From the IMG/VR virus record IMGVR_UViG_3300049793_000365: a stretch of DNA of 64,000 nt. One strand, written 5' to 3'. Numbering within the stretch: the stretch's first letter is position 1; each line of letters opens with the position of its first letter. This document shows positions 629 through 63,501 of this stretch, one piece after another. Made by a program: the position numbers and the translations under genes. The DNA comes from an uncultured virus (IMG/VR IMGVR_UViG_3300049793_000365). Taxonomy: Duplodnaviria > Heunggongvirae > Uroviricota > Caudoviricetes. The notes under the pieces are model-generated. The model had not been told where the DNA came from. It ran no database searches and saw only the letters and a list, made by a program, of their open reading frames with translations.

Positions 629-1006
629 TTATTGGCATAGTTCTTCTAACTTTATATCTCGTGCTTCCATTTGTAAAGCTTCCTTAATTGATTCGTTTTT
701 ATATTCTGCCTTAGCCAACAAAAGTAATACTTCATCAACACTTTTCATATAAGCGTATTTTAATACTCTCTGTGTAGATATCTTATCGTAATTTTTAATA
801 GTCTCAAAACTAAGATAAGTCGGGAAATATACAGTATACCAATTGGTATTTACTATACTATTTCCTTGACACCATGCTATCTCAGTGGTGTTTTTACCAA
901 CACCTTCTGCTACTGTTATTCGCCAACCATCGACATCAGTGCGTTCCGAGCATATTAAAAATCCCATATTAATGAGGATTGATATCATTTCTTTAACTTC
1001 TATCAT
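629..1006 (-). CDS. hypothetical protein with C-terminal RDxK tag
   Basis: ends ARDIKLEELCQ; part of the minus-strand operon 1..1356. Confidence 0.7.
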   Translation of the reverse strand: MIEVKEMISILINMGFLICSERTDVDGWRITVAEGVGKNTTEIAWCQGNSIVNTNWYTVYFPTYLSFETIKNYDKISTQRVLKYAYMKSVDEVLLLLAKAEYKNESIKEALQMEARDIKLEELCQ

Positions 1007-1362
1007 CTTTGTAGTTTACCATTTAGGTTAAATCTCATACGATATGGATTTTCATCACACCATTTAAATGTAATTTTCGGTTCACTGATATCAGACTTTT
1101 TAGCCAATCGTATTAATCGACTACGAATTGCTTCTACTGCCTCATTTATCGTTTCTTTATTGGTACCAGTTTTTAATATACGATTTGAACGAACCATTTT
1201 ATACATCTTAGTATTCTCATTGAAATCAACCTCTATGCGAATACAAAAGTTGTATGGCCACTCAGGTGAGCATATCTTTGACGCAGCTAACTCTAAGTCA
1301 ACCTGATTCTCCATTTCAAATGTGAATAGCTCTAATATGTCAGTTATTAAGTTCAAGTTCTA

Positions 1363-1394
1363 CAAATGTACGGATAATATTCCGGATAACCAAA
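1363..1394 (-). promoter_or_regulatory. Bacteroidota-type -33/-7 promoter
   Basis: minus strand TTTG-N20-TACATTTG, 6 nt before the 1356 start; spacer contains CGGA-ATATTA-TCCG. Confidence 0.8.
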
Positions 1395-1437
1395 AATTAG
1401 GTGGTTTTTTGCTTATATCAGGTTTTATATATAACAT

Positions 1438-1824
1438 ATGAAGAATTTAATGGTATTTGAAACGTTCGTAGATGATTATTATACAGAAATAAAGCGACTT
1501 AAGAAGGATGCTATTGATAAGTTACTATATGTTGGTACCACTCTAATTGATGATTTTGGGTTTGATTTATATAAAAAGGGCTTCTCTTTTGTCAATAAGA
1601 AGATAATTAATTACTACACAAATGATATAATTGAATTTTCACCTGAGTTAGCTGATGAATTAAAGAGAATGAAAAACAGACTCAAAGAATACAATATGGA
1701 TCTACTAATAGGTGTTGTAGTGGATGACCATGATAGGACAAGAATTGAATACAATTACAGCGATGAGTTTTGTAAATCTCTTATCGGTAAACGTGGAAAC
1801 TTCTATGTCTTTATTACTAAATAA
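1438..1824 (+). CDS. N-tagged putative head-internal protein, paralog family A
   Basis: MKNLMVFETF; TTATATATA 4 nt upstream; TLIDDFGF...ELKRMKNRL. Confidence 0.65.
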   Translation: MKNLMVFETFVDDYYTEIKRLKKDAIDKLLYVGTTLIDDFGFDLYKKGFSFVNKKIINYYTNDIIEFSPELADELKRMKNRLKEYNMDLLIGVVVDDHDRTRIEYNYSDEFCKSLIGKRGNFYVFITK

Positions 1825-1833
1825 ATTATTACT

Positions 1834-2100
1834 ATGAAGCATTTAAAAACATTCGAATCTTATATAAATGAGGAATTCTATTTGGGTTCTGATGAAGTTG
1901 TTGGTGTGACTTTTAAATTAAAGCAACCAGTTACTTGTGATGGTAAAACATTTGGTACAGAAGATACGTGGACAATTGATAAAGCTATTGATGATGCTCA
2001 TTACTGTACGTCAGACAAAGGAGATAAGGAAGTATTTCACACAGATATTATATTAGGTGATACTATTATGAGTACAGAAGATTCAGCTAAATTTCACTAA
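1834..2100 (+). CDS. N-tagged putative head-internal protein
   Basis: MKHLKTFESYINE. Confidence 0.7.
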   Translation: MKHLKTFESYINEEFYLGSDEVVGVTFKLKQPVTCDGKTFGTEDTWTIDKAIDDAHYCTSDKGDKEVFHTDIILGDTIMSTEDSAKFH

Positions 2101-2831
2101 TCCCACCAAGTATATAGTGTCTTTTTATCTCTATTTAATTCGAATGTATCAGCGTTACCATACATAGTTTGTAGCTCATCCATTTCGGAATCTGTTAATT
2201 CTTTTATGTAAAAGCCTTCTAACTGTACACGAGCATCTGGTCTATCAATTACCCTAAGACCATTGAATACTATTCTATTTTTATACTTTGCTAAATCAAT
2301 CATAAGCTCGCACGTAGTAAAAATACTATTAGCTACTTTTTCTGTTAACTCAGCCTCTTTACTCTTTATCAATTTTTCAATAATACTAAATGGTACTTTA
2401 TCAAATCTCAAAACATCCAACTCAAGACTATATGATAAATAATAAGGGTCTAGTATATCATCACTGGCTGAAAATACAAATGATACAACTATCTCATGAG
2501 AGTTTACATCGTGTTTAGTTACGAAATCCAATAATGGTTTGGCTAACGTATGTAACTTCTCTTCTAATCTAAAATAACCATCATCGTCACCAATTTTATA
2601 ACCCATCGATAATGTGATATCACAGTTAATCTTTTGCGTCAATCGAATAAACTCTTTAGCTATTTCGGGTGTTAGTTTAGACTTATCGCGTGTTTTAAAA
2701 GCACAAATAGTTTTTCTTATGTTATATATCTTCTCGGTGTCATACTGGTCAACAAACCATTGCATAGCCTCATCAATCTCTGATTCTGTTGTGTATGAAT
2801 ATGTTTCGTTAAAGCGTTTTAAATGTTCCAT
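2097..2831 (-). CDS. N-tagged protein, family A-like
   Basis: MEHLKRFNE; EAMQWFVDQY. Confidence 0.65.
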   Translation of the reverse strand: MEHLKRFNETYSYTTESEIDEAMQWFVDQYDTEKIYNIRKTICAFKTRDKSKLTPEIAKEFIRLTQKINCDITLSMGYKIGDDDGYFRLEEKLHTLAKPLLDFVTKHDVNSHEIVVSFVFSASDDILDPYYLSYSLELDVLRFDKVPFSIIEKLIKSKEAELTEKVANSIFTTCELMIDLAKYKNRIVFNGLRVIDRPDARVQLEGFYIKELTDSEMDELQTMYGNADTFELNRDKKTLYTWWD

Positions 2832-2832
2832 A

Positions 2833-5253: not shown

Positions 5254-5258
5254 CGCTA

Positions 5259-5561
5259 ATGGAAGACTCATCACAATCTAAAGGTATATTCGTTAAGCTT
5301 ACTAAAATAAGGGATTCTGAATCAGCATATGTTAAGAATCACATTGAGGCTGGCTTTGAAATAACTGGATATATTAAAGAAAAGCCAGTAGTTGGTGAAG
5401 TTATTTTCATATTAGACGAAAGAGGATATTCAATATTTACATCGAGTATTATATTGAACGTATTACCGAATAATAGATGGCAGACAAACAACTCAATCTA
5501 TGAAATGATTTGTATAGAAGAGTTTAGAGATAATCAAATAGACGCAATTATAAATGGATAA
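5259..5561 (+). CDS. hypothetical protein with C-terminal tag
   Basis: start reassigned to MEDSS after the promoter; ends FRDNQIDAIING. Confidence 0.7.
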   Translation: MEDSSQSKGIFVKLTKIRDSESAYVKNHIEAGFEITGYIKEKPVVGEVIFILDERGYSIFTSSIILNVLPNNRWQTNNSIYEMICIEEFRDNQIDAIING

Positions 5562-5790
5562 AACATTGATAGACGGTCTCTCTAAAGAGGATTTAATAAA
5601 GGTCATAGCTACTATGCACGATACCATTCAAGAATGGAATAATGGTTATGGTTTAGAAAAAGAAGAAGGTGATGCGCTTATTGAAATAGGTTCAGCTTGT
5701 ACACAATATTGTTCTAGTAAGGGTAGTTGGGGTATTCCAAACCCAACGCAAATAATCAGAGATAGTAAAATAAACAAAATCGTAGAATGA
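5554..5790 (+). CDS. hypothetical protein with C-terminal tag
   Basis: ends IRDSKINKIVE. Confidence 0.7.
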   Translation: MDKTLIDGLSKEDLIKVIATMHDTIQEWNNGYGLEKEEGDALIEIGSACTQYCSSKGSWGIPNPTQIIRDSKINKIVE

Positions 5791-6112: not shown

Positions 6113-6397
6113 ATGTTTGGTAGTAGAAGACAGCGAGAACAAGAACTTGATAATGAATTCAAGGTTAAGTCTCCACCAAAATATAAAGTAGGTCAGAAGA
6201 TATATTACATCGACGGTAATGATAATACCGCGATTAGAAGCATTGCGTGGGTGAATATCGCCACCGATGATTCCGGGAATAGACACTGGGTATATACCAC
6301 AAATTCAACCTTTGAAGAATTATTGGAAACAGACTTTGAGCCTTGGTTATCTAAGCAAGAAGTTAGAGATAGAAAACTAAATAACTTACTTAGTTAA
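6113..6397 (+). CDS. SH3/KOW-like hypothetical protein with C-terminal tag
   Basis: KYKVGQKIY; ends VRDRKLNNLLS. Confidence 0.65.
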   Translation: MFGSRRQREQELDNEFKVKSPPKYKVGQKIYYIDGNDNTAIRSIAWVNIATDDSGNRHWVYTTNSTFEELLETDFEPWLSKQEVRDRKLNNLLS

Positions 6398-11820: not shown

Positions 11821-11834
11821 AGACTATATATAAA

Positions 11835-12069: not shown

Positions 12070-12320
12070 TGACTAAAACTTGTATATGTGTAAAGGCGGA
12101 AGGCTTACCACACTTCGATACTATACGACCTTTCGTATTTGAGAATGGTTGTAAATATGATTACAATTATGATGATGAAATGGATGTTTATTTAGTGGAG
12201 TTTAGTGTATTGGGTAACATACCAATACCCAGTCGCATATTCAATAAGCATTTTATGGATATGGATAAATACACAGAAAATAAACGCGATAACAATATAA
12301 ATAATATTTTAAATGAATAG
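12069..12320 (+). CDS. SH3-like family C protein with C-terminal tag
   Basis: TCICVK...FENGCKYDY...FNKHF...KRDNNINNIL. Confidence 0.65.
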   Translation: MTKTCICVKAEGLPHFDTIRPFVFENGCKYDYNYDDEMDVYLVEFSVLGNIPIPSRIFNKHFMDMDKYTENKRDNNINNILNE

Positions 12321-12657: not shown

Positions 12658-13391
12658 ATGAAAACTAAAGCATTTATAGTTATAATCGCTGAGCCAACAC
12701 CAGCACATAATGAGGATAAAGATTTTACTTTAATATCCGCAAAGCAAATAGTAATGGCTTCTATTTTCAATTTATCTGATGATGATATGGATTTTAAAGT
12801 AGCATCTGAAATAAAGCCTATAAATTATGACATACTTGAGGGTTTAGATAACACGATTGGTGGTTGTTTAATTAGAACAACCGAGACAAAAGCTGGTACA
12901 TATTATACACGCTTTGATAACGCAGATGTTGATATGATTAGTAGATTTCTTAGTCATATAAAAACATTGAAGGTGAGAGAAGATGAAATGTCTATATTGG
13001 ATGCTGTAATTCAGAATCACCGAGGTAAAAAAGTTAATGAATTAATTAAATAGTATGCATTACAATGACCCAGAACAAATAGACGATAACTCACTTAAGT
13101 TGGTTATCTATACACACGGTGGTGATCCACTTGGTACTGTATTTGATATAACATCAATACAAGAGTGTAGACATTTTAGCCCTCGATTACTCACTAAAGT
13201 TATGAATATGCGAAAGCCAAGAGGTGGGAGAGATTGTTGGTATCAATGGTTCAATAAACCACAATTCAATGCTCTACCGCTTGAGAAATATTATTTGGTT
13301 TGGTTGGAGCAAACAGGTTGGGATGATATAACCATAATGGATATTACCGATGTAACTAACGACACTAATCAATTTTATCAATTACACTAAT

Positions 13392-13604
13392 ATGGATAGA
13401 GTAGTATTTTTAGAGGACCATGAATTCAATGGTAAAGTATATAAAAAAGGACACCAGTTCAATGTGACTGGTTCATCATATAGAGGTTTAGACCTGGAAG
13501 ATGATGATGGAAATAAAATACATGAAACGTTATTTATAAGTAGCAAATATAAATCTCTATCGGAAATACGTGATGAAAAATTAAGAAAAGATTTAGGATT
13601 ATGA
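13392..13604 (+). CDS. small SH3-like protein with C-terminal tag
   Basis: YKKGHQFNV...IRDEKLRKDL. Confidence 0.6.
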   Translation: MDRVVFLEDHEFNGKVYKKGHQFNVTGSSYRGLDLEDDDGNKIHETLFISSKYKSLSEIRDEKLRKDLGL

Positions 13605-14318: not shown

Positions 14319-14615
14319 TGAAATAAATACACTTGCTCGTAATATAATAAAAGACATTTCTTTATTTGATATAGAAAAGCAAAGAAGTTTATTTATGTGG
14401 ATATTTGATAATGCTGATGTTAAAGAACTTAGGTCGGACTTATTAGCAAATTCAGCATCTATGAAAGCCGCATTGGAATTAAGGGATGATTTTACTAAAA
14501 CGAGTAAAAACAAAAGACCACATATAAAAGCAATATCTACAGAAGAAGCCAGTAAAATATACTACGACTGTACTACAAAAATACGTGACGAAAAAATAAA
14601 CAAAATAATATCGTA

Positions 14616-14960
14616 ATGCGTGAGTTAGAACAATACACAGAACATAAAACTACCGAGTTTGTAAAAGAACTAAAGGGTAGATACTCTGAATTTCTATCAG
14701 ATAAATTTTTACAAGTTTACCTGGTTAGTTCTTTTATGGATTCATACCGGGCCAGACCAAATAGCGATTTAGCGAATACTGCTTATGCGTCAAGTGTTTT
14801 ACTATTCGAATCTTTACTTGAACATGGTTGTGGTGCTATTGGAAATGGCCACCACGTAGCCCAAATGTATTCTGCTATGTTTCCTCAAAAAACTATACAG
14901 GAGTGTTCTAATGAGCTAAAAGCATTCATTAGAGATAATAAACTAAGTGATATTTTATAA
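14616..14960 (+). CDS. hypothetical protein with C-terminal tag
   Basis: ends IRDNKLSDIL. Confidence 0.7.
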   Translation: MRELEQYTEHKTTEFVKELKGRYSEFLSDKFLQVYLVSSFMDSYRARPNSDLANTAYASSVLLFESLLEHGCGAIGNGHHVAQMYSAMFPQKTIQECSNELKAFIRDNKLSDIL

Positions 14961-15572
14961 TGAAAATAATCTGGGATAGAAATTCTACTGATTGGTTACA
15001 TCAGTTTATAACAAATGATATACCAGAGTTTAATCACTTTGGTGGTCAAACCATTTATAAAATAGGAGCAAAGTTTATCCTATCACAAGGCTCTGACTTA
15101 TGGATTGCTGATTGGACTTCTATTACATCAGGCTCAGCTTGGTCATTAACAAAAGTAATAGACCTACCTAAACTAATGAATGGTGGTTATAAGTTCTGGG
15201 AGTTTAAGTATGAGTCTTGGCAAAAGACTGGTTATTATTATAGATTTAACGTAGACAGTCGCTATATCGATTCTAAGAGTGATTTTGATAAATTCCCACA
15301 TAGACCAGGCGCACAAATAATAGTTGATGGTAAACTTAATGCTGTATCTAGTTTCTACAAAGTGGAAACACATACGATGTCTCGTGGGTATCTACCAAGT
15401 GTTCGAATATGTGAATCCAGAGAAATAGAAGAAAAGGCTATTATGGATATATTAAATGGCACTGCACCGAATTTAAGAACATTCAAAAACGAAGTTTTGG
15501 AGAATCCTGACACGAAGAAGATTATCTTGCGAGAACTTCAGCTTAATTCGATTGGCGTTTAATATATAGTAT

Positions 15573-15905: not shown

Positions 15906-17274
15906 TTTATACAAGATAGTCAACTTAGTGATGTTTTAAACTATAAGTGTCTTAGACAACTTATTTATGAAAACAATTATCACTTACATCACGGACGATG
16001 GTCAAGAGTTCGACAACATATTCAGTGCAAGAAGACATGAATGTGAATTAACACAACACACTTGGGAGTTCTACACAAAGAACATGGGATTACAGAAACA
16101 AATGGATTATACGACCCATATGCAATTCTGTAAGAAGTGTCAAAAGCAGGAAATACTTGAAAGAGAAGTAATCAATGCTGAGTTACACAATCGTTTCATA
16201 GTTCAGAATTAAACTACCACTAATCTAACATTAAACTACCACATGGATATTACAGTAACACAAATTTTCTACAAACCAATCGTTGAATTGGAAACTATCG
16301 ATATTTTCGGATTTAAATATATCCAGAGAACTCTATCACCAAATCTTTATGTAGTTGAAACAGAAAACGAAATTCCGGAGGGGTCTGACGTTGAGTTCAA
16401 ATACAATAAATTATTCTATACATTAGAAGGTGTTAGTACAGCTATACATGATGGTAAAACATTCATTCAGTGTAGCAACTGGACCGAATCTATGTTCTAA
16501 TGAAAGATGTAAAGATACTTGAGACTTATTTAGAAGATGTCAAGTTCGCGATATTCACTTATACTGGTTTAGAAGATCCAGTTGAGCCATTGAATATAGC
16601 AATTAGTTTATATACACTTGGTGAAGAATATCACGAATTTATTGATATGAATATGAATAACCCCTGGGTTCGTATAGTAACATCTAAGAAGTTAGATGAT
16701 ATAAAGGGTATGACAGAACCAGAATTAAAGCAATGCATCAGAAATAACCGCATAGACCACATTTTAGACTAATGGAACATTATTACATAGTATGGAGAAA
16801 TCCATTCTTCTCATATGCTCTACAAGGCGATGGTTACTTTGTTAAATATAAAGATAAACTATCTGATTGGTGGTCTACTGATTATAGAGATGCTGCTAAA
16901 TACAAAACTCTTGGTCCAGCTATTTCACGTTTAAATATAGAATACAATAAGGCTACTTCTATTTACAATTTTATAAAAGCTAACACACCTAATACAAAAT
17001 CAGCACACAGAGATTGCAGTATATCAAATGTGTTGGGTGAGTCAGTTGATATTTCGACTGTATTATCCTGGCGAGGAAGAATTGATAAGGTAAGTAAAGA
17101 CTACGAATTTCTTGGTAACGCGGAAGAAGAAGTCATTAAGCACATTGAGAAAACTATTATAAAAAATCACAATGCTATTGAATCGCGTATGCTTAAAATA
17201 GGTGAGGCTCCAATTGATATAGATTATACCACATCAGAATATCAGAATGAATTTGATAACTTTTTCGGATTATA

Positions 17275-17694
17275 ATGAGAGCAGTTTGTATAGACAATGA
17301 TGTAGACGGGTTAACACTTGGTAAATATTATGATATAATTGAACAGGGTTCTCATCCAGATTCAATTCACACATGGTATAAGGATTGGTTTCTTATCAAA
17401 AATGATAGCGGTGAAATTAAGTGGTATGATAGATGCCCATATGGCATCTTGAAAATATTACCAGCTACAAATATGTGGGGTGAATATATTGGTCAAAATA
17501 CTGGCGGATTAACCAAAGGCATTCAATATAACTTATTACATAAGAGTGATAGAGAATTCTATTACTTTTTAGATGATAATAAAAAATTCGTTGGTATTAG
17601 GCAGATTAATTATTTTGGCGGTGATCCTAATTTCAGAGTATTAGAAAAGGATGAAGTAAGGGATAAGAACATAAATGATATATTGAGTATATGA
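17275..17694 (+). CDS. tandem SH3-like family C protein with C-terminal tag
   Basis: GLTLGKYY and GLTKGIQY duplicated; VRDKNINDIL. Confidence 0.65.
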   Translation: MRAVCIDNDVDGLTLGKYYDIIEQGSHPDSIHTWYKDWFLIKNDSGEIKWYDRCPYGILKILPATNMWGEYIGQNTGGLTKGIQYNLLHKSDREFYYFLDDNKKFVGIRQINYFGGDPNFRVLEKDEVRDKNINDILSI

Positions 17695-18080: not shown

Positions 18081-18451
18081 GATACAATACTTTCTATCCT
18101 CTTATCACGATTCTCTTTATCCTCATCATATTCTTCAACAGTTATTGACCTGGTGAATCTCACCTTTGGTTCTGAAATTGAGTTAGAGTAATCACGTTTA
18201 TAACCGTTAGAAATCTTGGTCACTATGAATTGTCTAATGTGATATTCATCGGCTTTTTTATTTATACCATCGATGTATGATTGTAGAAAATCTTCACTGA
18301 ACTCACCTCTGAGTCTGAGATAGTCGTGTTCACTTCTAGGTGAAGTACCTCGAATACTAAAGTAGAAAACATCACCTACGTTAAGCGGCATAATACCATC
18401 AACATCTTCTAATGCTTCTTCATTGAAGATAACTTCTGTCTTAAGCTCCAT
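18077..18451 (-). CDS. hypothetical protein with C-terminal tag (end of a tagged minus-strand run, 18077-21531)
   Basis: ends NRDKRIESIVS; 10 of the 11 consecutive minus-strand ORFs here carry the tag. Confidence 0.7.
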   Translation of the reverse strand: MELKTEVIFNEEALEDVDGIMPLNVGDVFYFSIRGTSPRSEHDYLRLRGEFSEDFLQSYIDGINKKADEYHIRQFIVTKISNGYKRDYSNSISEPKVRFTRSITVEEYDEDKENRDKRIESIVS

Positions 18452-19953
18452 GTGTAATATTGTTTATTTTATTATTTCTAATTTGTATTCTCAATTCATT
18501 CTCATTCTTAAACCTATAAATTAAACTATCACATTTATTCTGTGCTATATTATATTCAATAGCTATGTCTAAGTAATATAGAAATTCCTCTTCAGTAAGT
18601 TCCTTATCAATGCTATGATTGACTCTATCTTTTATATATGCTTTGTCGGATATACCCAAAACATAATTATTAAAGAATATAAATATGCGGTTCTCTGATG
18701 GTAATACACCGACAAGTCTCTTCGCGCTTTCGCTATACAGAAGTGTACGATTATTCTCAAGAATTATATTGACTTTGTTTATCAAATCTATCATCATAAT
18801 AGCTTCTTAAGTTTCTTTTGCCTTTCTTTCATCTTCTCTTCTTCCGGATTTATTTCAGGTCTCACACCGTCTACCCTAAGTATAACTGGGTCAAATCCAT
18901 ATGATATATACTCTCGGTATGTAGGATCGCTAATCCAACCACGCTTCTCTGTTTTAACCCAGATACCACCTTTAAAGTATCGAACAAACCATAGTGAGTA
19001 CCAAAAATTAATCATTACCTATGATATTATCTATTTTAGAATCTCTAAATAAAGCATTGATAGCTGGGTGATTTATTTCATCAATCTTTTCTACCAAAAA
19101 TTGTAGATAGTCTCTGTATAATTTATTCTGTGTAAAACTACCTATATCAACCCAAGTAGTGTTATCATATGAATAATCTATATGTAATTCATCACCATAT
19201 CTCTTCTTAGACACTCTGAAATATATTATTATTCTACCATCAGAGTCGTGTACTCTGAAATTATTCATGCTACCCGCGAAGCATAGACCTTTGTAATTTA
19301 TAAACGGATCCATTATTCGAGTAACTTATTAAGCTGACTTTTCCTTATCAGTGATTTACAAATATTAATACTTCCAGTTTTGTGATAGTTATTATTAGTG
19401 AATACTTCTAATTTAGCAACGTATTCATCTGGTTCTATTAGAATGCTTATTAGCTTCCAGGTTTTAACATCAGCACCAAGCTGACCCTTTTTATGAGCAT
19501 CTATGAGGAATTCTAATATGATTTCTTCAACCAAGTTAAGCTTCATTTTATAAAATCTTTTTCAATTCGAGTTCTCGTTTAGCATCTAATGGCATTGTGA
19601 AATTAACATCATCATATCCTTCAATGACAAATCCAATAGCTGGGTTCTTACCACTTATGCTATAAACACTCTCTTCGTTGTCGATATTTTTTTCATCAAC
19701 CTCTTTCATGGCTTCTTCGAACATAGGTAAGAATTCACTCGCTACATCAAAGAATGCCATGTTGTGATAACATCTTACTTTACCATCTGCTTCTCTTAGA
19801 AAGATTGTATCAGACCCAAACGCACCTGATTTCTTTCTAACTTGTAGAAGTCTACCGAATGATAGATTATCATTTCCTTGAATTGGACCAGATATAACAA
19901 TAGTTTTATAACCATGTTCTTCTGTTCTTGTTCTGAGTCTACCCCAGTGAGTA

Positions 19954-20154
19954 TTATTTGCTATCATCTAATAGTTGATTAAGTTTAGCATCGCGTCTAT
20001 TTCGTTTAATGGTATCTGAATTAAAATGAATATCAGCCGTCATAATTATTTTATGTACAGTCTGTGGTGTCTTATCAATAGCAATAGCTATCTGTGATAT
20101 GGTGAGACCATTCATTCTTAAATCACGTATTTCAGATATCATTTTATCTTTCAT
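19954..20154 (-). CDS. helix-turn-helix protein with C-terminal tag
   Basis: GLTISQIAIAIDKTPQTVHKI; RRDAKLNQLL. Confidence 0.7.
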   Translation of the reverse strand: MKDKMISEIRDLRMNGLTISQIAIAIDKTPQTVHKIIMTADIHFNSDTIKRNRRDAKLNQLLDDSK

Positions 20155-21571
20155 ACTACCAAGGAGTTGTGAAGTCTAAGTCAATACCACCTGGTAGACC
20201 AGTACCCATCATATCACCAACACCTGGTGTATTACCACCAAAGCCTCCACTTTCTTCTTTTTCGAAGTTTCTCTTTTCTGAGTATTCTAAGCGGTCATAT
20301 GTATAAGAGTCAATATTATCACCATATCTGTAATCTTTTCCACCAGTAGTTTTGAACGAGTATTTACATTTGTATTTCATATTAATCTTTTTAATTTATA
20401 ATCTCTCATCTTTGCCGACAGAGTGTAATTAGGTTTTATATTAACAGTTAGTGTATATGTTTCATATCCGTTATAAGTAAGATATGAGCTTCTACCTACA
20501 ACACTTAAAATAGAATACCCACTTTCCTTAAGTGATGTTTCTATTCTTTTTGATTTACTATATGATTCTGCTACATTTATCGCTGATGTAAATACATCAC
20601 ACTTAATAGCATAATATGTGTCATGTGGTTCAATACTACAATTTTTAAATTTACCACCAAACTCAATACTGATAGCTGGCTTAACAATATCGGTTAGGCA
20701 TTGTGCTTCATATTCAGTTGGTTCATTCATGTTATAAATATACGGATTAATCCAATAGAATTTCACTTAGTTTAAAATCCCTTAAATTTACGGTAAAGGA
20801 ATTACCCATTAGTAATCTGGTATTTGAGTTATAAGATTTCCAGGCTTCGTCTGCGTACCAACAAAGGTTATGTATGTTAATGAAGAAGTCGAATTCGGTT
20901 ATACCCAACTCAAAATCTCTACGCATTTTATCTATACATATCGGTGGACACGCTGGTCTATAACCTTGTGCTGTAATGTAGTTGTGAATATCTTTCTCAG
21001 TGATATTGAATACTTTCATTATTCGGTTATATCGTTAATTGCTTCGTGTCTTTTAACTGCGGCTCTATCTAATTTAGATATATCTAAATATAAAACACCA
21101 TCTAAATAGCGACAGGTTCTAACGATGCTACCCTCGCGCATACTGCTATTCTTTTTATAGAAAGTTAACCAAACGCCTTTGACGTTAATACATCGCTTAT
21201 TTATTTTAGGATTTGCTTTAAGAATGGCATATGCCTTATTTTTAACAACATCGCAAATGTATTCATCGTTTTCAGCAGTTCTGGCATTGGTATGCTTTTT
21301 ACTACTCCAATTATGAATGACATCCATATCAAGTTCAGTAAAATCGTCTGATTCGATATTTATGGTTACATCATCGATGTGTTCTTCTTTCAGTCTACAA
21401 CCGAAGAAGTGTGCTGTCTTTATGAGTATTTTGTTTATTTTTATTGTCATAGCTTTATCACTTCTTACCATTTCGTCCAACAAATATAAGGATAATACCC
21501 CAATTATGCAAATCCGGTGAATAATATCCACTATTTAATTATAATGCGTTAATTTTTAATATATACCAAAT

Positions 21572-42236: not shown

Positions 42237-42649
42237 TCTAAAATACTCAACTTATCGATAAAAGGGGCATATACGTAGAAATTATACTATGAACCCCACT
42301 CAATTGATGACATATCTTAAGAGTCTTGGATTTCACCACAACTCATATACTCTATCACTGGAGTATCATTCTTTTCATTATGTTTTTGAGGTAGATAATA
42401 AGAAATTGAATAATGTTGTTATCTCTATTTGTAGAGATGAGAATGGTAAATATCGTCAGCAGTTCGGTAGAGAATATGATATATTCAATGTTAAGTATCT
42501 ATCCGATAATAAGAATATGTTATTCGACGGTGATGCTAATGCTGTATATAAGTTTATAACTCAATATAAAATAGGTAATTTTGATGCTCTTCGTGATATT
42601 AAATTAAATCAAGTTTTGGATTCTTAAATATTATCCATAATTTTATGCG

Positions 42650-46876: not shown

Positions 46877-47231
46877 TTAGAATGCTGAAACTAATTGTTT
46901 TAGTTGACTATCTCTTTTGTGAATAGTGTAAAGCTCAAGTAAAATATCCTGAACCTCTTTGCTGTTGTTAGAATAGTTAATTCTATCATCAACTCGAACA
47001 TTCACATGACCCTGTATGAAGTTTGTATAGGTACCAACCGAACCTCTTTCTAAAGTTTCAATAGTACACATATCATTCTCACGAGTAGTTGAAACGTTGA
47101 ATTGGTCTCTTTCTTTTTTATAATTAACGATATTACCTTTTAGGGTTTTCTCTATTTCGATAGCTATCATTTCTTTGTTTTTAGTAACAAAGTCAAAGAT
47201 ACCGTGTATTTGAATTATTGGTGACATATTA

Positions 47232-47291: not shown

Positions 47292-47789
47292 ATGAAACTT
47301 AAACTATTTGAAGAATTCACTGGGAAAGAAATAGCTACACGCATTGCTTATAATGATGTAATTAATATGGAGACATATCATTCAATATTCTATGAGATTT
47401 TAGAAGATGATATAACTATGAATATCAAGAGAGCAGTATTCGAGAACAAACCAGAATCAGAAAATGGAATTAACCAGTTCTTGAAGAACTCAGGAATTAA
47501 TGGTATTGATGAATGTATGTTATCTGTTCAGTTATATGGTTTCAACAAGGATAAATATGAAGATAGATTATATAAAATATATTCAATTAATGATGATTTC
47601 GGTGATTGCTTTGTAGTAGATAAGATAGACTTGTTTTATGATGATGAAGAACAAGTGAGTAAGGCAATTAGAAAAATAAAAGCTGAAAGCTGTGTGAAGA
47701 ATGTAGTCTATAAATTCAAATCGAATAGTTTCACTAACGGAATTAGAATTCTTATTTTATATAAAAATTCAAGTGCCAAATTATCTTAA
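47292..47789 (+). CDS. N-tagged protein
   Basis: start reassigned to MKLKLFEEF after TAATATATA at 47279-47287. Confidence 0.7.
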   Translation: MKLKLFEEFTGKEIATRIAYNDVINMETYHSIFYEILEDDITMNIKRAVFENKPESENGINQFLKNSGINGIDECMLSVQLYGFNKDKYEDRLYKIYSINDDFGDCFVVDKIDLFYDDEEQVSKAIRKIKAESCVKNVVYKFKSNSFTNGIRILILYKNSSAKLS

Positions 47790-48624
47790 TACTTCTTCAA
47801 GTTTAGAACCTCTTCTATCAGCTAACATCATATTCATAAAGTGTTCTTCTTGTTTACCACATAGATGATATGCTTCTTTCTCAAATGGTATACTACCACT
47901 AAGAACTATGTTTGGATATCGAAGATAGAATAAATCAAGATTCAATTCTTCGTTTAACTTCTGCAATAAACCCCAATCAGTTTTAATACCAATTCCGTTA
48001 TAACCAGGATCGTTATCCCAAAACATTTGATAAGCCAGCATCCAGGTCATATCATTTATAGTGTTGAGTTCACTATTATATTCAACATAATATTTATCCT
48101 GACCGTCTTTCTGAAAGTAAATACTAGAAGCATCGTTGTGACTTCTACCGGCACCACCACTTCTTTGAAAAAACATCTTAACTGGGATATCTGGTTGAAT
48201 CATACCACCAAACGGAAATCTTTGTTCATTCACTGTGTTTAGAAATTTCATACCCATTATAAATTTATGGATTGTTATTCCTAAGAATTTAGATTTGTAA
48301 TATAATCTTACACAAGGTGTGTTTTGGGGAAATATCAAGAAGCTTACAGAACCACCCGTGGTGTATTTCTTTTCTTCGATATCATATTGTAATTTCCAAA
48401 TAAAAGTATCTGTTTCTTTTATTATGGTAGCTTTCTTGAACATTAGTCGTAATGTTCTTCGAATCTTTTCTTATCCTCAGGAGTTAAATCTCTACCAATC
48501 CAGTCGAGTATACCTAAACGCTTATCAATATCCCATTGTGATTCTGGTGATAACTTAAAAAAGTTCTTTGGTCTTTCGAATGATTTCTCAAACATTTCTT
48601 TTTCTGACATACTATTTTTTTGTG

Positions 48625-48784: not shown

Positions 48785-49315
48785 ATGAATTCATATGAAT
48801 ATCAAACAATAAGAGGTATGGGTAGAAAACTATATCTAATTGACCAAAGAGGTGGAAAGTGTGAGAAGTGTGGTTATTGTGAAAACTTAGGATCACTTGA
48901 CTTTCATCACCGAGATTCTAATGAAAAGGAAGGTAAATTAGATATGCGAACATTATCCAACTCCACAATGAAATGGATTCTATTAGAGTTTGAAAAATGT
49001 CAAGTTCTGTGTTCAAATTGTCATAGAGAGACGCACTACCCAGACTTAAATATAAATTTAGTTAGAACCAAAGTGAGTGAGTTTAATAACTATTTAAAAG
49101 ATAGATCCGTTAATCTACCAAGATGTGTAGATTGTGATAAGCCAGTGAATTATAAATCTATAAGATGCAGAGAATGTAAATGCAAATCTACCAGAAAGAT
49201 AGGAAGACCAACTATTGATATCTTATTAGAAGAAGTAAGACTAAATGGTAGAAAGTATTGTGCTAATAAATATCAAGTAACTGTGAGAACAATTGGTAAA
49301 TGGTTAATTTTGTAG
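48785..49315 (+). CDS. HNH endonuclease (homing-type) with zinc finger and C-terminal HTH
   Basis: CEKCG...LDFHH...CQVLCSNCH; CVDC...CREC; ANKYQVTVRTIGKW. Confidence 0.85.
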   Translation: MNSYEYQTIRGMGRKLYLIDQRGGKCEKCGYCENLGSLDFHHRDSNEKEGKLDMRTLSNSTMKWILLEFEKCQVLCSNCHRETHYPDLNINLVRTKVSEFNNYLKDRSVNLPRCVDCDKPVNYKSIRCRECKCKSTRKIGRPTIDILLEEVRLNGRKYCANKYQVTVRTIGKWLIL

Positions 49316-49561
49316 TAATAACTCTATCTGCTTTTCTCTATGTTCTTCTATGAAGGAAAAGTGGTTTAAGAAATACTCTTCATTCAATCTTATCACAGTA
49401 ATACCATTACCAGTACTTACATCATAACTAGTGTAACCTATATAGCCTTGAACCGGATCAGATGCTCTCACTAGTAGCTTGTCATATACATATGATTCAT
49501 TTTCTTTGAATACTATTTTTTTATTCTTATCAAGAACAAGTTTTGTGCAAATACATTTCAT
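49304..49561 (-). CDS. SH3-like family C protein with C-terminal tag
   Basis: MKCICTK...FLNHF...HREKQIELLL. Confidence 0.65.
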   Translation of the reverse strand: MKCICTKLVLDKNKKIVFKENESYVYDKLLVRASDPVQGYIGYTSYDVSTGNGITVIRLNEEYFLNHFSFIEEHREKQIELLLQN

Positions 49562-52076: not shown

Positions 52077-52593
52077 AGTTTTGGGAAATGATAGACCGCT
52101 CAAGGAAGAGAAAATCTTTAGAGCGTATAAGACAGCAGTATTTAGGTAAGATAAACGAGATACAACAGAATATGGGCTACATTCATATGATGAGTTGGTC
52201 AGATTCCGAAAAGAGAAGTATGTTTGCTGCTTATCAGCAAGAGAAAATGGAACTTCAATCTAAAGCTGATAGTATAGAAATGGAAATAAGATTATTATAA
52301 TATGTGTGAAGAAGATTGGTGCGAAATGCTTGATAAAGCTACGTATAAAAACTATTTAGATAAGTTATCTGAATTAGAAGAAGCAACTGGGCGTAAGTAC
52401 TCAGTGACAAATAATACATGGCGCTCTGCTGGTGATACTGATAGAAATGGTTATGTTTTTATGGAAACAAATACATTGTTTATTAAGGGTGGTATAATTA
52501 AATATACTAAGCACGATGCGATGGGTTATATAAAAGAGTCTTTCGAGATTAGCATTGGTGAGCATAGAAACACACAATTAGAAAAGGTATTAG

Positions 52594-52908: not shown

Positions 52909-53929
52909 TATGGAAAAACCATTCGTACCATTTTATAAACCATACGGTATGTCGGATGAAGAATTCGAATACGAAGTAAAGATTGCTGAACAAAAACTTT
53001 CTGAATGGGAAGACCATCAAGAGGAATTGCGTAAATCTTGTACGCATGAATTTATATCAAGAGAATATTTATCACAACCCTACGGGCATTGTTTATGTTG
53101 CGGTAGAACAATATTAAGCTGATGAGTTATAGTCAATTATTAGATAATTTCGAATTAGAACATCGCGTAGGTGGATGTTATGTTACCGAATATGTGTATG
53201 GTAAAAATAAGCTTTATTATACCAATGTGGAACAGATAACTGTCTATGAATATAGAGCATTAACTAATATTACACAAGAGTGTCGTTTAAATGATGAGGT
53301 GTTCAATCATGTACCTAAAAAGGTTCGTGAGCATATGGGTGATGAACCAAGAGACATATCATTCAAGGGTAGTTTATATGAGTTACAAAAACATCTAATG
53401 CTTCTATACCCACACAAAGGTCGTAATCAAAAAATAGATGATATTATAGATTATGGAAAAGAACGTTAAACAATATGCTAATTATTTAATTGATATGTAT
53501 CAAGATATTGGTGGTACAAAGAACTCATCAATATATCGAAGGTTAACTGATAAAGGTCTTGATATATTCAAGGTAACCGAGTTAGCTTGTGAGATTGAGA
53601 TTATTTATCAAAGAGAAGAAAAACTAAACACACTGCTTAATGAAAAGAGAAAAAGAACTATTCGATAATAAACAAGAAGCCATATACGGCTTTAGTAATT
53701 TTCTATCTTATAAATGGTATCGTAAATTATTTGGTGGTAAATGGCGCTTGTTGAAGTTTGGTAAAGATACACCATACATATACTTATTTGCGACATGGAC
53801 TAAACGAGACGACTCATGCTTCGAAGGTTACATTGAAACAATAGATGTTGAAGTATATCCTGAAACTGGTGTTGATTCTCGTTGGAAATTACGTAAACAG
53901 TTTATTAAAAATATACTAAGAATTAAATA

Positions 53930-55214: not shown

Positions 55215-55216
55215 TA

Positions 55217-58409: not shown

Positions 58410-59003
58410 TTAAGAAACAATATCACTTATCTTTCTGTCTCTATCATCTGATATAACATCAGCGATAAGATCCGCACCAAAAGCTTCTTTTACCAAGTCC
58501 ATGTGCTTGAAGATATTATTTTTACTTATGTGTTCTTCTAAATAGAATGGTTGATGTGCCTTAACCCATTCATATATATCATCTGGCTTTTCCCATTTAA
58601 TATCAATCACTTCTGAGTTCTCGAATGTTGGTAAAGTCATACTACCACTTCTTCTCATTTCCTTTACTATCTTAATAAATTTATTATCAACTTTATTATC
58701 TAAGTTGAGAGAGGAAATAATGATTTTACTTAAACTAGCTGATGATGGCATGAATTTAACGGTGCCATTAATTATTACGAGAAAGTATGCTCTTCGTATC
58801 ATCTGTACATCTTTACTACGATTGGATAATTTAGAATATTTATCCCAAATTTTATATATGTATTTTTTATTTAAATCATCAAATATAAATACATTCTTAA
58901 GATATAATCCTATTATATCGTAGAAAGGTACTAACGTACCATCATGCTTTATAATGGGTATTACTTTTATAATATCACCATCTTCTGGTTTATACCACAT
59001 CAT
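58410..59003 (-). CDS. possible gp32-like ssDNA-binding protein homolog with C-terminal tag
   Basis: WYKP...IKVIP...RAYFLV..GTVKF...PTFENS pattern; DRDRKISDIV. Confidence 0.4.
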   Translation of the reverse strand: MMWYKPEDGDIIKVIPIIKHDGTLVPFYDIIGLYLKNVFIFDDLNKKYIYKIWDKYSKLSNRSKDVQMIRRAYFLVIINGTVKFMPSSASLSKIIISSLNLDNKVDNKFIKIVKEMRRSGSMTLPTFENSEVIDIKWEKPDDIYEWVKAHQPFYLEEHISKNNIFKHMDLVKEAFGADLIADVISDDRDRKISDIVS

Positions 59004-60713: not shown

Positions 60714-60854
60714 CTAACGGCTTTTTTTCCATTTATCGATTAGTTTATAAATCCAATTTCTTTTAAAAATTTTATCAAGCTTCTCTTCTCTCTTAACGGA
60801 TTGAGGCTTTAAGTCTTCCAATAATGCTTTAGTTATTCTACCACCTTGAAACAT
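60714..60854 (-). CDS. 46-aa tag-dominated microprotein, not in the ORF track
   Basis: MFQGGRITKALLEDLKPQSVKREEKLDKIFKRNWI... Confidence 0.55.
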   Translation of the reverse strand: MFQGGRITKALLEDLKPQSVKREEKLDKIFKRNWIYKLIDKWKKSR

Positions 60855-60999
60855 CGTACCATTTCTTTTTAAAGATTTTATCTATCTTCTCGTCTCTTCT
60901 ATCTGCTCTTGTTTTGAGCATTTCATTGAGTTGTTTACTCACACCATTTGTTGCTGAGATAATACGAACCAGTGCTATTAAATTTTTAATAAGATTCAT
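60838..60999 (-). CDS. 53-aa tag-dominated microprotein, not in the ORF track
   Basis: MNLIKNLIALVR...RRDEKIDKIFKKKWY... Confidence 0.55.
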   Translation of the reverse strand: MNLIKNLIALVRIISATNGVSKQLNEMLKTRADRRDEKIDKIFKKKWYDVSRW

Positions 61000-61247: not shown

Positions 61248-61324
61248 TAAATATATGGATAATAATTCATTTAACCAAATTATCGGATGAAATTTGGATA
61301 TTAAGTATTAATTACTTATATTTG
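61248..61324. promoter_or_regulatory. divergent pair of Bacteroidota-type promoters
   Basis: minus TTTG-N20-TATATTTA (61248-61279); plus TTTG-N20-TATATTTG (61293-61324). Confidence 0.8.
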
Positions 61325-61552
61325 TAGAAGTGAAGCGCAAAATATATTTCATATTGGATAAGGTAATGAATGTCATTGGATTCATTTGTATAGCACCAAT
61401 TTACGCATTTGCTTCTCTATTCGAAGATAAAGAATTCTCAAGACAAGCACAAGAATTAATGGAAGATGCTATCGAAGAGGCAGAGAATCCCAAGTCATAT
61501 AAGCGCAATAAGCAGTTAGAAAAATTATTAGACGATAAATAATATATACATT

Positions 61553-62128
61553 ATGCTGAAAAGATACACAGAATTCGTAACCGAGACCGTTTCAAACTTA
61601 TCTAAAGTGAGAAGCTTCCCAACCAATATGTATGAGATATACAAACTAAGTAAAAGCGACTTGGGTAAGTATTTAAATACTTGGTTTACTGGTAAACGAA
61701 TTATGTTATCAGATATTGAACAACACAAGGTTAAGTTTAAAAAGGGAACTTTAAAAGACTATTTGTGTCTTGATGAAGTTTGGACAGTAAAGCGAGTAGA
61801 TGATAAAACAAGTCAAAGATTATACAATCGCGACATCAATCCTATATCAATTATAATAATGGCACCAGCTAGTTCTAAATTCATAGAAGACGAGGCATTC
61901 AAAAGAAATGAAGCTGGTGAAACACTTTATAATATGAAGTGTATGATTCACTCGGTAGATGATTCTTCGTTCGGTATTTGGTTCAATGGAAGACCTCTTT
62001 CAGAATTAGAACCAGTTAAACACGAAATGATGAAGTGGGTTAATTCTAAACCAATTATTAATGGTGATGAATTTATCAATAAATGTATTGAGTTAGGAGC
62101 AGAAGAAGATTCAATCGATTATAACTAA
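61553..62128 (+). CDS. N-tagged protein
   Basis: MLKRYTEFVTE, very close to the T4 CTS MKTYQEFIAE; TAATATATA at 61540-61548. Confidence 0.7.
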   Translation: MLKRYTEFVTETVSNLSKVRSFPTNMYEIYKLSKSDLGKYLNTWFTGKRIMLSDIEQHKVKFKKGTLKDYLCLDEVWTVKRVDDKTSQRLYNRDINPISIIIMAPASSKFIEDEAFKRNEAGETLYNMKCMIHSVDDSSFGIWFNGRPLSELEPVKHEMMKWVNSKPIINGDEFINKCIELGAEEDSIDYN

Positions 62129-62406
62129 TTCCAGCAGATATTGAATTCTTTCAATTTCTTATTGCGAAGCATCGTCATTAAATAGTATTCTATCTCTTCT
62201 GTGTTATCAGCTATTTCGATTACTACACCAGACATGATATAAATAAGCTTAGGTGAACTATTTTCACGAAAGTATATATCATCATCACCATCACGATAAA
62301 CCCAGTCACCGGCTGATACCTCACATGGGTCATATACAGAACAGTACTTCGATTCAACGAGTTGTTTGAACCCGATAGATTTTAATATTTTAACAATGTC
62401 CGACAT

Positions 62407-62751
62407 TTAGTTTACAATAATACTAATTTGTTCGTTACGATGTGCAGATATATCTAAAAAATATTTGTGAAATAAATGAACACTGTTAATATCCCATAAG
62501 ATTGGTAGCTTACCAGCTAGTATGTCAGCCTCTTGCTTTCTATCGAAATCATTGACCATTCCTTCCCAATCTGCTGGATTATCTAACTTAAGAAAGTAGT
62601 CAGGAAAGTTACCAACAGATACCCAACAACTTGTGTATTTCGTGTGGATATCTTCTTGTTTATCATCAGATGCTATCAGATAAGAATAATTCTCACCAAC
62701 TAAAAAGGAAACACCATAACCATCAAACTGTTTTATACATCTACAAGTCAT
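62407..62751 (-). CDS. SH3-like family C protein with C-terminal tag
   Basis: CRCIKQF...FLVGENYSY...FHKYF...HRNEQISII. Confidence 0.65.
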   Translation of the reverse strand: MTCRCIKQFDGYGVSFLVGENYSYLIASDDKQEDIHTKYTSCWVSVGNFPDYFLKLDNPADWEGMVNDFDRKQEADILAGKLPILWDINSVHLFHKYFLDISAHRNEQISIIVN

Positions 62752-62990
62752 AATATAGAGTTTATTTTCTCATCCCTGTGACAAGACATACATAGATTAT
62801 CTCTATCTCTACAATCTACACAAGCAGTAAAATAATGCTTACAGTCATTACATTCACAAGTTCGAGTAACACCTTCCTTATTACAGAAAATACACACAGG
62901 TTCTACCCTATTAATCGATATGATAGTATCACATGATTTTAGCTTATTCATAGAATCGCGTATTGATTCCGAAAAGGTAGACAACAACAT
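62748..62990 (-). CDS. Cys-rich zinc-finger protein with C-terminal tag
   Basis: four CxxC pairs; HRDEKINSIL. Confidence 0.65.
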   Translation of the reverse strand: MLLSTFSESIRDSMNKLKSCDTIISINRVEPVCIFCNKEGVTRTCECNDCKHYFTACVDCRDRDNLCMSCHRDEKINSIL

Positions 62991-63189
62991 TACGCGAGAA
63001 CAGATTTGATTTTCTTATCTCTCATAGCTATTTTACCACATAGTAGTTTTACTACGTCACCTGGTATTTTTTCATTCTTCTCGCAGTAGTCATGTAACTC
63101 TTCGAGTGTGATTATAGATTCACCTTGGTATATTAAATTGTGATTATCATCAATTGTGATACCTTCCATTCCAAATAGTCCCATATTTA

Positions 63190-63501
63190 TTAGTTTATTA
63201 GTTCGTCTAACTGTATGTTGCGATACTCAATAACATCCATGAAGCGATATTTAAAATTATCATGTGATAGTCTAACCAAACCACAATCGCTATTAGGATC
63301 TAATAGAAGCTCATCTATTGACTTATAATATGTATAATACTCACCTTCTTCGAATACGACAGTAGATGATTGTGTATCGGTATGATATGACCGAATACAA
63401 ACACATTTGCTTTCTATTAACTGTTGTTGCATCACTAATTTATAGTTAAGTTGTCCTGAAAGGTTGGTTCTGTATAGTGAAATTAATAGACTGTGTATCA
63501 A
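63190..63501 (-). CDS. SH3-like family C protein with C-terminal tag
   Basis: KCVCIRSY...FEEGEYYTY...YRNIQLDELI. Confidence 0.65.
   Translation of the reverse strand: MIHSLLISLYRTNLSGQLNYKLVMQQQLIESKCVCIRSYHTDTQSSTVVFEEGEYYTYYKSIDELLLDPNSDCGLVRLSHDNFKYRFMDVIEYRNIQLDELIN

Follow-up and report, generated by a model that had tools for sequence, protein, structure and literature searches.

Introduction

Why should about a third of the small proteins of one phage end in the same few residues? The question is raised by a stretch of DNA of 64,000 nucleotides, here called the window, from an uncultured virus of the Caudoviricetes (IMG/VR record IMGVR_UViG_3300049793_000365). An earlier reading of its letters (the original prediction) had reported a C-terminal tag, R(D/E/N)x(K/Q)(I/L)xx(I/L)(L/I), on about 60 unrelated small proteins, and had proposed that it recruits early proteins to one partner as a docking, sorting or degradation signal. 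Here we ask whether this tag exists, on which proteins and in which phages it occurs, and what could read it. Our analyses lead us to favour, with modest confidence, a portable docking tag that non-late accessory proteins carry and that one conserved, putative partner would read in trans. If a single reader does serve between a tenth and a third of the proteins of a giant phage, finding it would open a functional route into hundreds of orphan genes at once and would show how very large phages organise their early proteome. No description of such a tag was found in the print literature, most subscription journals lying outside the search.

Results

A C-terminal tag on small window proteins

The window is AT-rich (31-33% G+C) and densely covered on both strands by 303 small open reading frames (ORFs) of at least 40 aa, from which a greedy, longest-first choice left 156 that do not overlap. 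The strict pattern R[DEN].[KQ][IL]..[ILV][ILVF] matches 34 times in the 20,049 residues of these 156 ORFs, and 29 of the 34 matches lie no more than 8 residues from the stop. When each protein was shuffled 1000 times, strict matches averaged 0.20 anywhere (maximum 2) and 0.019 at the C-terminus (maximum 1); this excess over shuffled sequence had been chosen beforehand as the check on which the tag could founder. A looser pattern, R-[DEN]-x-[KQ]-[IL]-x-x-[ILV]-[LIVF]-like and admitting a variant ending in ...[IL]-G-[ILV], marks 50 ORFs within 16 residues of the stop, and in 47 of them, 30% of the 156, it lies 0-8 residues before it; before the Gly variant was added, 49 ORFs had the motif within 16 residues of the end. 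The C-terminal tag exists, and it marks about a third of the small window proteins.

The first position of the tag is Arg in all 49 of these ORFs, although the pattern admitted Lys too. No residue follows the tag in 7 of the 49, one in 19, two in 10, three in 8 and more than three in 5. The tag is the very end of the protein in 7 of 47 cases, while the other 40 trail polar residues, mostly D, E, K, N and S. About ten more degenerate tails can be recognised by eye (for example in ORFs 629-1006, 13392-13604, 29142-29447, 42650-42826 and 45908-46159), and the earlier figure of about 60 tagged proteins, a third of the ORFs, was a fair one; all 11 of the tails then quoted as examples were confirmed at their ORFs. 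The tag logo is the same in the window and in the related phage record LR745206, including positions that the pattern leaves free: Lys at -4, a hydrophobic residue at -1, Asn or Asp at +6, and Asp, Lys or Asn at +10.

Conservation in the protein, on unrelated bodies

Five codons encode the tag Arg (AGA 24, CGT 8, CGC 7, AGG 6 and CGA 4 times), Ile and Leu interchange at the hydrophobic positions, and third codon positions within the tag carry 0.0-0.4 bit of information, against up to 2.6 bit at second positions. The DNA around the tag, 30 bases before and 45 after it, shows no conservation. The five Arg codons and the uninformative third positions place selection at the level of the protein, as originally proposed, and together with the non-conserved flanks they rule out a repeat at the DNA level.

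When the tails are trimmed away, BLASTP among the window proteins (E<1e-4) returns one related pair, which lies outside the C-terminally tagged set. Clustering by body similarity divides the 303 tagged proteins of five tag-bearing records into 256 groups, 194 being singletons, and the tagged bodies span 41 to 731 aa. This is what a portable signal on unrelated bodies predicts. The folds that had been named for those bodies (HTH, SH3, zinc finger and others) were not recovered: a Pfam scan of 150 window proteins put no family above threshold on the tagged ones, and the matches of 3 of 57 proteins scanned against PHROGs are to families of unknown function. The remark that enzymes lack the tag fared better, since every window enzyme that Pfam names (GGACT, cytidine deaminase, a Dam-like methylase fragment, RNA ligase, a lipoyl/biotinyl domain, a deoxyribosyltransferase-like protein and CysRS) is missing from the table of tagged proteins.

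Six of the 303 tagged proteins, none of them in the window, are copies of parts of larger phage proteins, including a Gp23-like capsid protein. In LR745206.1 the small paralogues (207176-207907, 255010-255237 and 291407-291880) of the ORF at 200752-202434 are mini-proteins that mirror the N- or C-terminal part of this capsid protein, with counterparts in LR756502.1, and these mini-proteins bear the tag at the end or internally. Several other small proteins have a GMGAV...AQP...LAG segment in common with the N-terminal region of the capsid protein.

A tag of a lineage of huge phages

The tagged protein at 58410-59003 identified the window as part of a phage contig of ~712 kb (711,805 bases). 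Homologues of 56% identity (P0002) and of 27% identity (in LR745206.1) both retain its tag. A window ORF of 747 aa matches, at ~25% identity, only two records, the uncultured 635-642-kb phages LR745206.1 and LR756502.1; used as a query for related loci in IMG/VR, it found no relative. We processed LR745206, LR756502 and several IMG/VR contigs whole, by the ORF procedure used for the window, and counted ORFs with a tag no more than 8 residues from the stop. Alongside 47 of 156 in the window, tagged ORFs number 137 of 975 in LR745206, 135 of 1000 in LR756502, 33 of 235 in contig G001, 19 of 203 in G004 and 44 of 523 in the first 400 kb of G005, a share of 8-14% in these five related huge-phage records. 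Three AT-rich huge phages served as real-genome controls for composition: G002 (482 kb, complete, 37% G+C) has 1 tagged ORF in 768, G003 (IMGVR_UViG_3300022868_000009; 345 kb, 25% G+C) 1 in 521, and G010 (309 kb, complete, 32% G+C) 1 in 423, with no strict tag. G002 and G003 hold genes homologous to window genes at ~50% identity; G010 was reached via its Hsp70 gene.

Scanned with one codon version of the tag, IMG/VR yielded at least 122 matching stretches. Among 80 of these loci, taken with their flanks, strict C-terminal tags number at least three in 19, two in 15, one in 16 and none in 30; the 34 loci with two or more represent no fewer than 26 further IMG/VR contigs. The search among related megaphages that the original prediction had suggested therefore finds the tag throughout a lineage, in five related records and these further contigs, and nearly absent from three other phages; the tag marks a lineage of huge phages, not one phage. 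A profile of 28 aligned tails, run against a collection of 5.8 billion proteins, returned 3 of the window's own proteins among 64 candidates and is uninformative on breadth, because a word index cannot find a nine-residue motif.

The tag also stays with its protein. In 128 of the 174 pairs in which a tagged protein has a cross-genome homologue of similar length, found by its body alone, the homologue is tagged too; the background is 371 in 2569. Many of the apparently untagged homologues end in a variant, R-[DE]-x-K-[LI]-x-x-[LI]-G-[IL]. Strict matches far from the C-terminus number 15 in LR745206, against one each in G002, G003 and G010; such internal copies occupy the same residue position from one orthologue to the next, and the stretches after them are polar and contain Pro. 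The tag can therefore do without a free carboxylate. In the window paralogues 28515-28898 and 38053-38457 the tag stands at residue 23 and precedes a conserved domain of ~100 residues, an arrangement found likewise in LR745206 at 376406-376840.

Different tails appear to mark other huge phages. Met-Gly occurs in the last 16 residues of 39 of the 521 ORFs of G003, a phage without the RDxKI tag, and ~30 of these end in KMGLL and look paralogous. The KMGLL proteins are small and lie mostly in one array at 300-339 kb (loci L070-L072).

As to the host, the window CysRS gene (59000-60445, minus strand) is 58-74% identical to CysRS genes on records of Bacteroidota, Sphingobacteriaceae, Flavobacteriaceae and Pedobacter type. 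Only two of the 80 best titles are not of Bacteroidota type, and some of the best matches lie on short contigs of metagenome-assembled genomes that may be phage. The match suggests Bacteroidota as host or as gene donor, and the lineage probably infects them.

An N-terminal leader on a separate set of proteins

A second terminal element, which the original prediction had not described, stands at the start of 13 window ORFs, none of which has the C-terminal tag. This leader, M-K-[HY]-L-K-x-F-E-x-[FY], opens ORFs 1834-2100, 3772-4587, 32826-33167, 44564-44971, 44972-45427, 46373-46876 and 54810-55214 on the plus strand and 3246-3464, 7571-8107, 11242-11820, 22323-22739, 36207-36599 and 45405-45872 on the minus strand. 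Leader ORFs number 51 in LR745206, 72 in LR756502, 54 in G002 and 20 in G003, the last two being huge phages without the C-terminal tag. Tag and leader are mutually exclusive: pooled over five records, 3 ORFs have both, 368 the tag only, 149 the leader only and 2049 neither (odds ratio 0.11, p 1.5e-7). The leader resembles the capsid targeting sequence (CTS) of phage T4, whose internal proteins IPII and IPIII begin MKTYQEFIAEA in the T4 record AF158101. The concept of the CTS of the T4 internal proteins IPI-III, credited to Mullaney and Black (1996), is set out in PMC9024508.

The two sets of genes also differ in what precedes them. Of the 126 leader runs, 107 have a promoter-like motif, TAATATAT/AATATATA, upstream; among tagged runs the count is 27 in 211, and among all others 358 in 962. 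The rarity of this motif before tagged runs is marked both against leader runs (p 1.5e-41) and against other runs (p 4.5e-13). In the window, 9 of the 13 leader genes have the motif TAATATATA 5-6 bases ahead of their ATG (examples precede 3464, 3772, 8107, 32826, 36599, 44564 and 45872), so near the start codon that the mRNAs of leader genes would be nearly leaderless. The same motif precedes the capsid gene of LR756502, and a variant of it that of LR745206. What is new here is thus a second system, an N-terminal leader behind the TAATATATA motif on proteins that exclude the tag, and the pattern points to leader genes being late and tagged genes not late.

That tagged proteins are early, as had been claimed, is a separate matter. 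The two-box sequence TTTG...TAnnTTTG is the promoter consensus of Bacteroidota. Its TAnnTTTG box is commoner before tagged runs (55 of 211) than before other runs (148 of 962), and by eye TTTG...TA..TTTG can be seen in the regions 36171-36206, 39013-39048, 47228-47264, 61271-61329 and 11821-11937, which lie upstream of tagged operons. The full two-box pattern is not enriched before tagged runs (10 of 211, against 51 of 962), and hence we make no claim of early transcription by the host RNA polymerase. Of the claim that these are early proteins, the avoidance of the leader-gene motif stands and the host-type promoter does not.

Shape of the tag

A short, C-capped helix would account for the hydrophobic residues spaced at i, i+3 and i+4 and for the ...[IL]-G-[ILV] ending seen among orthologues. 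The tag is probably such a helix of ~9-12 residues, with the Gly variant as its putative Schellman-type C-cap. A look-up in the ESM Atlas with the last 30 residues of ORF 14305-14616 gave generic helical segment matches only. The label "amphipathic", given to the tag originally, does not suit it: the helical hydrophobic moment (at 100 degrees) is 0.24 for 371 tags and 0.32 for 2198 untagged C-termini, the low value arising because the invariant Arg sits on the hydrophobic side. An amphipathic helix for membrane targeting or encapsulation (the MinD/FtsA membrane-targeting sequence, or the encapsulation peptides of bacterial microcompartments) is rejected on the same values, since such helices have a high moment.

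Candidate readers

Candidates for the reader were taken from the conserved untagged proteins common to LR745206 and LR756502 and absent from G002 and G003, of which there are 203. Among the 100 best conserved of these, Pfam picks out Hsp70, two J-proteins, GrpE, PrkA, SpoVR, M16 and M28 peptidases and a rhomboid. Hsp70 was found in LR745206, LR756502, G004 and all five of the contigs found by their tags (G005-G009), while BLASTP in G002 and G003 gave no match. The complete phage G010 has an Hsp70 and no strict tag in 423 ORFs, and Hsp70 is therefore not sufficient. The flanks of 27 other Hsp70 loci hold no tag, nor does the Hsp70 flank of G004 itself, and the phage Hsp70 looks like an ordinary DnaK. 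In LR745206 a tagged gene lies between GrpE and DnaJ. PrkA is rejected as a universal reader: only 2 of 5 tag-bearing contigs encode it, and two contigs that are at least 97% complete lack it. A stricter phyletic profile, which asked for presence in LR745206, LR756502 and the first 400 kb of G005 and for absence from G002, G003 and G010, retains 144 candidates.

At LR745206.1 460-485 kb (locus L012) and elsewhere, the tag-bearing phages encode, besides the full Hsp70/DnaJ/GrpE set and the other proteostasis genes named above, EF-G, a protein with an NFACT-R domain and the RNase P protein. In the window, the 103-aa ORF 44191-44502 (minus strand) is 65% identical to the first 100 residues of the LR745206 GrpE, which precede the Pfam GrpE domain; that domain was not found in the window, where the GrpE-like gene may be truncated or split.

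Positions of the tags in the window

On the plus strand, C-terminal tags run from RDNQIDAII (5526..5552, ORF 5067-5561), RDSKINKIV (5758..5784, ORF 5554-5790) and RDRKLNNLL (6365..6391, ORF 6113-6397) to RDNNINNIL (12285..12311, ORF 12069-12320) and RGKKVNELI (13021..13047, ORF 12658-13053). ORF 13392..13604 follows with a degenerate tag (...IRDEKLRKDLGL), the homologue of which in LR745206 is canonical. Next along this strand are RDEKINKII (14584..14610, ORF 14305-14616), RDNKLSDIL (14931..14957, ORF 14616-14960), the Gly variant RELQLNSIGV (15530..15559, ORF 14960-15562), RNNRIDHIL (16740..16766, ORF 16500-16772) and RDKNINDIL (17659..17685, ORF 17275-17694). RDIKIDTIT (23443..23469, ORF 23164-23481), whose LR745206 homologue is tagged too, is succeeded by RDKQIRKII (23937..23963, ORF 23712-23969), RHEKLEKLV (24650..24676, ORF 23969-24682) and RDKKIKKLI (28054..28080, ORF 27733-28092). 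ORF 28092-28514 ends in RDQKIDEIT (28479..28505) and holds an internal copy, REEKINTII, 62 residues before its end, giving a body-tag-body-tag structure; the internal tag of ORF 28515..28898, the paralogue of 38053-38457, is RDCKINDVL at residue 23.

Further tags on the same strand are RENKLKAIL (37430..37456, ORF 37178-37462), RESKIDQIF (37753..37779, ORF 37459-37785), RNLKIESIL (38025..38051, ORF 37782-38063), REEKIDKLF (39289..39315, ORF 39049-39324), RDIKLNQVL (42592..42618, ORF 42289-42627), REKKLEELL (43674..43700, ORF 43383-43709), RNTQLEKVL (52566..52592, ORF 52302-52604), RNQKIDDII (53422..53448, ORF 53122-53469, with 6 trailing residues), REEKLNTLL (53612..53638, ORF 53453-53668, with 9) and RNKQLEKLL (61504..61530, ORF 61330-61542).

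The minus strand carries RDKRIESIV (18083..18109, ORF 18077-18451), RNNKINNIT (18453..18479, ORF 18441-18797), RQKKLKKLL (18797..18823, ORF 18794-19015), RDSKIDNII (19020..19046, ORF 19008-19313), RKSQLNKLL (19319..19345, ORF 19313-19546), RELELKKIL (19551..19577, ORF 19548-19967), RDAKLNQLL (19969..19995, ORF 19954-20154), RDYKLKRLI (20380..20406, ORF 20377-20766) and RDFKLSEIL (20756..20782, ORF 20747-21019). ORF 29142..29447 has a degenerate Gly-variant tail (...RIKKLEEIGI). Beyond it lie REKRLKEVL (32479..32505, ORF 32470-32745), RDEKINTIL (35210..35236, ORF 35204-35659), RGEQLDKLI (35662..35688, ORF 35659-35895), RGEKLDALL (35898..35924, ORF 35892-36170), RQNNLDILV (39726..39752, ORF 39723-40130), RDDKINDLL (40138..40164, ORF 40132-40428), RDSQLKQLV (46889..46915, ORF 46877-47227), RGSKLEEVL (47787..47813, ORF 47781-48443), REKQIELLL (49313..49339, ORF 49304-49561) and RDRKISDIV (58416..58442, ORF 58410-59003), the last with homologues that keep the tag. 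REEKLDKIF (60765..60791, ORF 60714-60854) and RDEKIDKIF (60871..60897, ORF 60838-60999) have 16 and 10 trailing residues; in these overlapping ORFs the tag is followed by a similar Trp/Lys-rich extension of 10-16 residues, and they look like a local duplication. The strand closes with RNEQISIIV (62413..62439, ORF 62407-62751), RDEKINSIL (62751..62777, ORF 62748-62990), RDKKIKSVL (62996..63022, ORF 62990-63184) and RNIQLDELI (63196..63222, ORF 63190-63501). A tRNA-Met gene with anticodon CAT lies at 48624-48698, also on the minus strand.

Discussion

A probable docking tag and its putative reader

The reading that we favour is that this lineage of huge phages attaches the tag to the C-termini of small, fast-evolving, non-late accessory proteins, and that a single conserved partner would read it in trans, at the level of the protein. 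A single binding site could accommodate the invariant Arg, the acidic or amide side chain that follows, the Lys or Gln and the [IL]-x-x-[IL]-[LI] cluster, while the variable bodies would supply the individual activities or targets. Recruitment might serve tethering, localisation, turnover or the passing on of a bound target. The tag would then be a second address system, apart from the T4-like N-terminal leader on the proteins that exclude it.

Several observations weigh against this reading. The 144 candidate readers left by phyletic profiling include none that is singled out; the strong preference for 0-3 trailing residues is unexplained by docking alone; and the term "early" rests mainly on the absence of one motif, given that the two-box pattern is not enriched. 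With a hydrophobic moment below that of untagged C-termini, the tag is no classic amphipathic helix, and AlphaFold2 models of two tagged proteins (mean pLDDT 48.4 and 49.8, with the tag region below 50) are of low confidence and leave the helical shape a prediction only, not an established one. Finally, all tagged genes may descend from one ancestor of which only the last helix is still recognisable.

A more ambitious version of the docking reading, which we consider rather doubtful, is a two-signal addressing code. The N-terminal leader would send late proteins to the capsid, and an orthogonal C-terminal tag would direct the non-late accessory proteins, more than 130 in each genome, to a reader of their own, which could be a phage chaperone/J-protein machine, a processing peptidase or a compartment. 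The bodies would perhaps form a library of target adaptors, making the system a phage analogue of substrate-receptor libraries, and other huge-phage lineages would have tails (KMGLL in G003, for instance) and readers of their own. The nine-residue tag is a ready experimental tool for pull-downs and reporter fusions, and tag and leader together allow genes of uncultured huge phages to be sorted into classes by sequence alone. In a 2026 review, import into the phage nucleus is described as proceeding without terminal signals; a system built on terminal tags would be a different principle.

Alternatives

As to what the putative reader does, the most concrete sub-hypothesis is turnover of the tagged proteins, or their hand-over to a proteostasis machine. 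The tag would be a degradation signal or adaptor tether that passes the protein, or a target held by its body, to the phage Hsp70/DnaJ/GrpE or to a host AAA+ protease, to be removed or remodelled at a set time. Among the genes specific to tag-bearing records, the best conserved include some of this kind (the chaperones, PrkA, SpoVR, M16, M28 and rhomboid); Hsp70 is in LR745206, LR756502, G004 and the five independently found contigs; a tagged gene sits between GrpE and DnaJ; and the six tagged fragments of larger phage proteins would suit a design of bait plus tether. We nevertheless think this unlikely: G010 has an Hsp70 without strict tags, the phage Hsp70 looks like an ordinary DnaK, PrkA is patchy, the polar residues after 40 of 47 window tags and the conserved internal copies are unlike known C-terminal degrons, and shared ancestry can account for the co-occurrence.

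Common descent could itself be the whole explanation, if the tag were the last recognisable helix of an ancient, exploded gene family, serving the protein's own fold or self-association and having no common reader. Tagged genes do form long, tightly coupled runs typical of duplication arrays (85% are coupled in the window), G003 has its clearly paralogous array of ~30 KMGLL-ending proteins, and two window ORFs have a tandem body-tag-body-tag structure. Yet the single BLASTP pair in the window, the 256 clusters formed by 303 proteins, and bodies of 41 to 731 aa that include capsid-protein fragments all tell against it, and an invariant Arg in a nine-residue element across such unrelated lengths is hard to explain by maintenance of a fold. 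We regard it as distinctly improbable.

There is little to be said for a PIP-box-like or beta-clamp-like peptide by which proteins would be loaded onto a sliding clamp on phage DNA. The h-x-x-h-h spacing, the polar residue three earlier and the extreme C-terminal position resemble PIP boxes, and the ...LGL/LGI-COOH variant is reminiscent of the clamp motif of E. coli Pol IV. Against this, the clamp families PF09116, PF00712 and PF02916 were each found in 0 of 5 phage records, the tag does not follow the letters of the known consensus, and more than 130 clients per genome would be unprecedented.

Tag-to-tag association, by which the tails would bind each other and co-assemble early proteins into one body or condensate, is very unlikely. 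A short hydrophobic cluster between opposite charges could pair, and proteins with two tags exist; nine residues are in general very short for a stable helix pair, the hydrophobic moment is low, and nothing in the sequence data calls for pairing. A complex prediction for two different tagged window proteins, from two-row alignments, gave a score of 0.00 and a mark of 0.32, which weighs neither way.

We give equally small credence to loading into the prohead for injection, and thus to the phage scaffold that had been suggested as a destination. Scaffold and cargo proteins of several phages and of encapsulins do dock by C-terminal peptides, and a few tagged proteins are capsid-protein fragments. 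Capsid loading by the tag is made unlikely by the separate T4-like leader that the same genomes carry on a mutually exclusive set of proteins; the distinct TAATATATA motif lies before leader genes and the LR756502 capsid gene and is mostly missing before tagged genes, and G002 and G003 have the leader without the tag. Least credible of all, and largely refuted by the five Arg codons, the Ile/Leu alternation, the near-empty third positions and the non-conserved flanks, is a nucleic-acid signal or recombination joint at the 3' ends of gene cassettes, in spite of the more frequent overlap of tagged genes with the next start codon (72-85% vs 49-67%).

Comparison with known systems

The favoured docking tag has partial counterparts in several systems. 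Like the T4 CTS, it is a short, portable terminal peptide on unrelated, fast-evolving small phage proteins that would have one reader; the CTS is N-terminal, of other sequence, late and cut off, whereas the tag is C-terminal on a set that excludes the CTS-like leader. Membership of the T4 type is rejected on position, on sequence (M-K-x-Y-x-x-F) and on co-expression with head genes as judged by the promoter-like motif, which precedes 27 of 211 tagged runs and 107 of 126 leader runs.

Clamp-binding peptides comprise the PIP box Q-x-x-[LIM]-x-x-[FY]-[FY], the bacterial QL[SD]LF type and the tails of T4/RB69 gp43, gp33 and gp55. They share with the tag a short motif at the extreme C-terminus, the h-x-x-h-h spacing and the principle of many clients on one hub, but the tag has an invariant Arg, no Gln, aliphatic instead of aromatic hydrophobics, and far more clients. 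The C-terminal degrons and tethers of AAA+ proteases, such as the SspB XB tail and the ssrA tag, similarly join diverse proteins to one machine by a short C-terminal peptide; these need a non-polar end and a free carboxylate, whereas the tag is usually trailed by polar residues, has conserved internal copies and ends the protein in only 7 of 47 cases. Encapsulin cargo-loading peptides and microcompartment encapsulation peptides sort cargo into a protein shell, and are alike in being terminal peptides on unrelated cargo for one shell; the tag is not classically amphipathic, its genes are probably not late, and no shell gene was seen, none having been searched for.

Substrate-receptor libraries such as the F-box, SOCS/BC-box and poxviral ankyrin-PRANC proteins are built around a shared docking module. 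As would be the case in the phages described here, many variable bodies are combined with one constant docking element, and viruses use such libraries to redirect machines; the module there is a domain of 40-50 residues from the eukaryotic ubiquitin system, and here it would be a phage element of nine.

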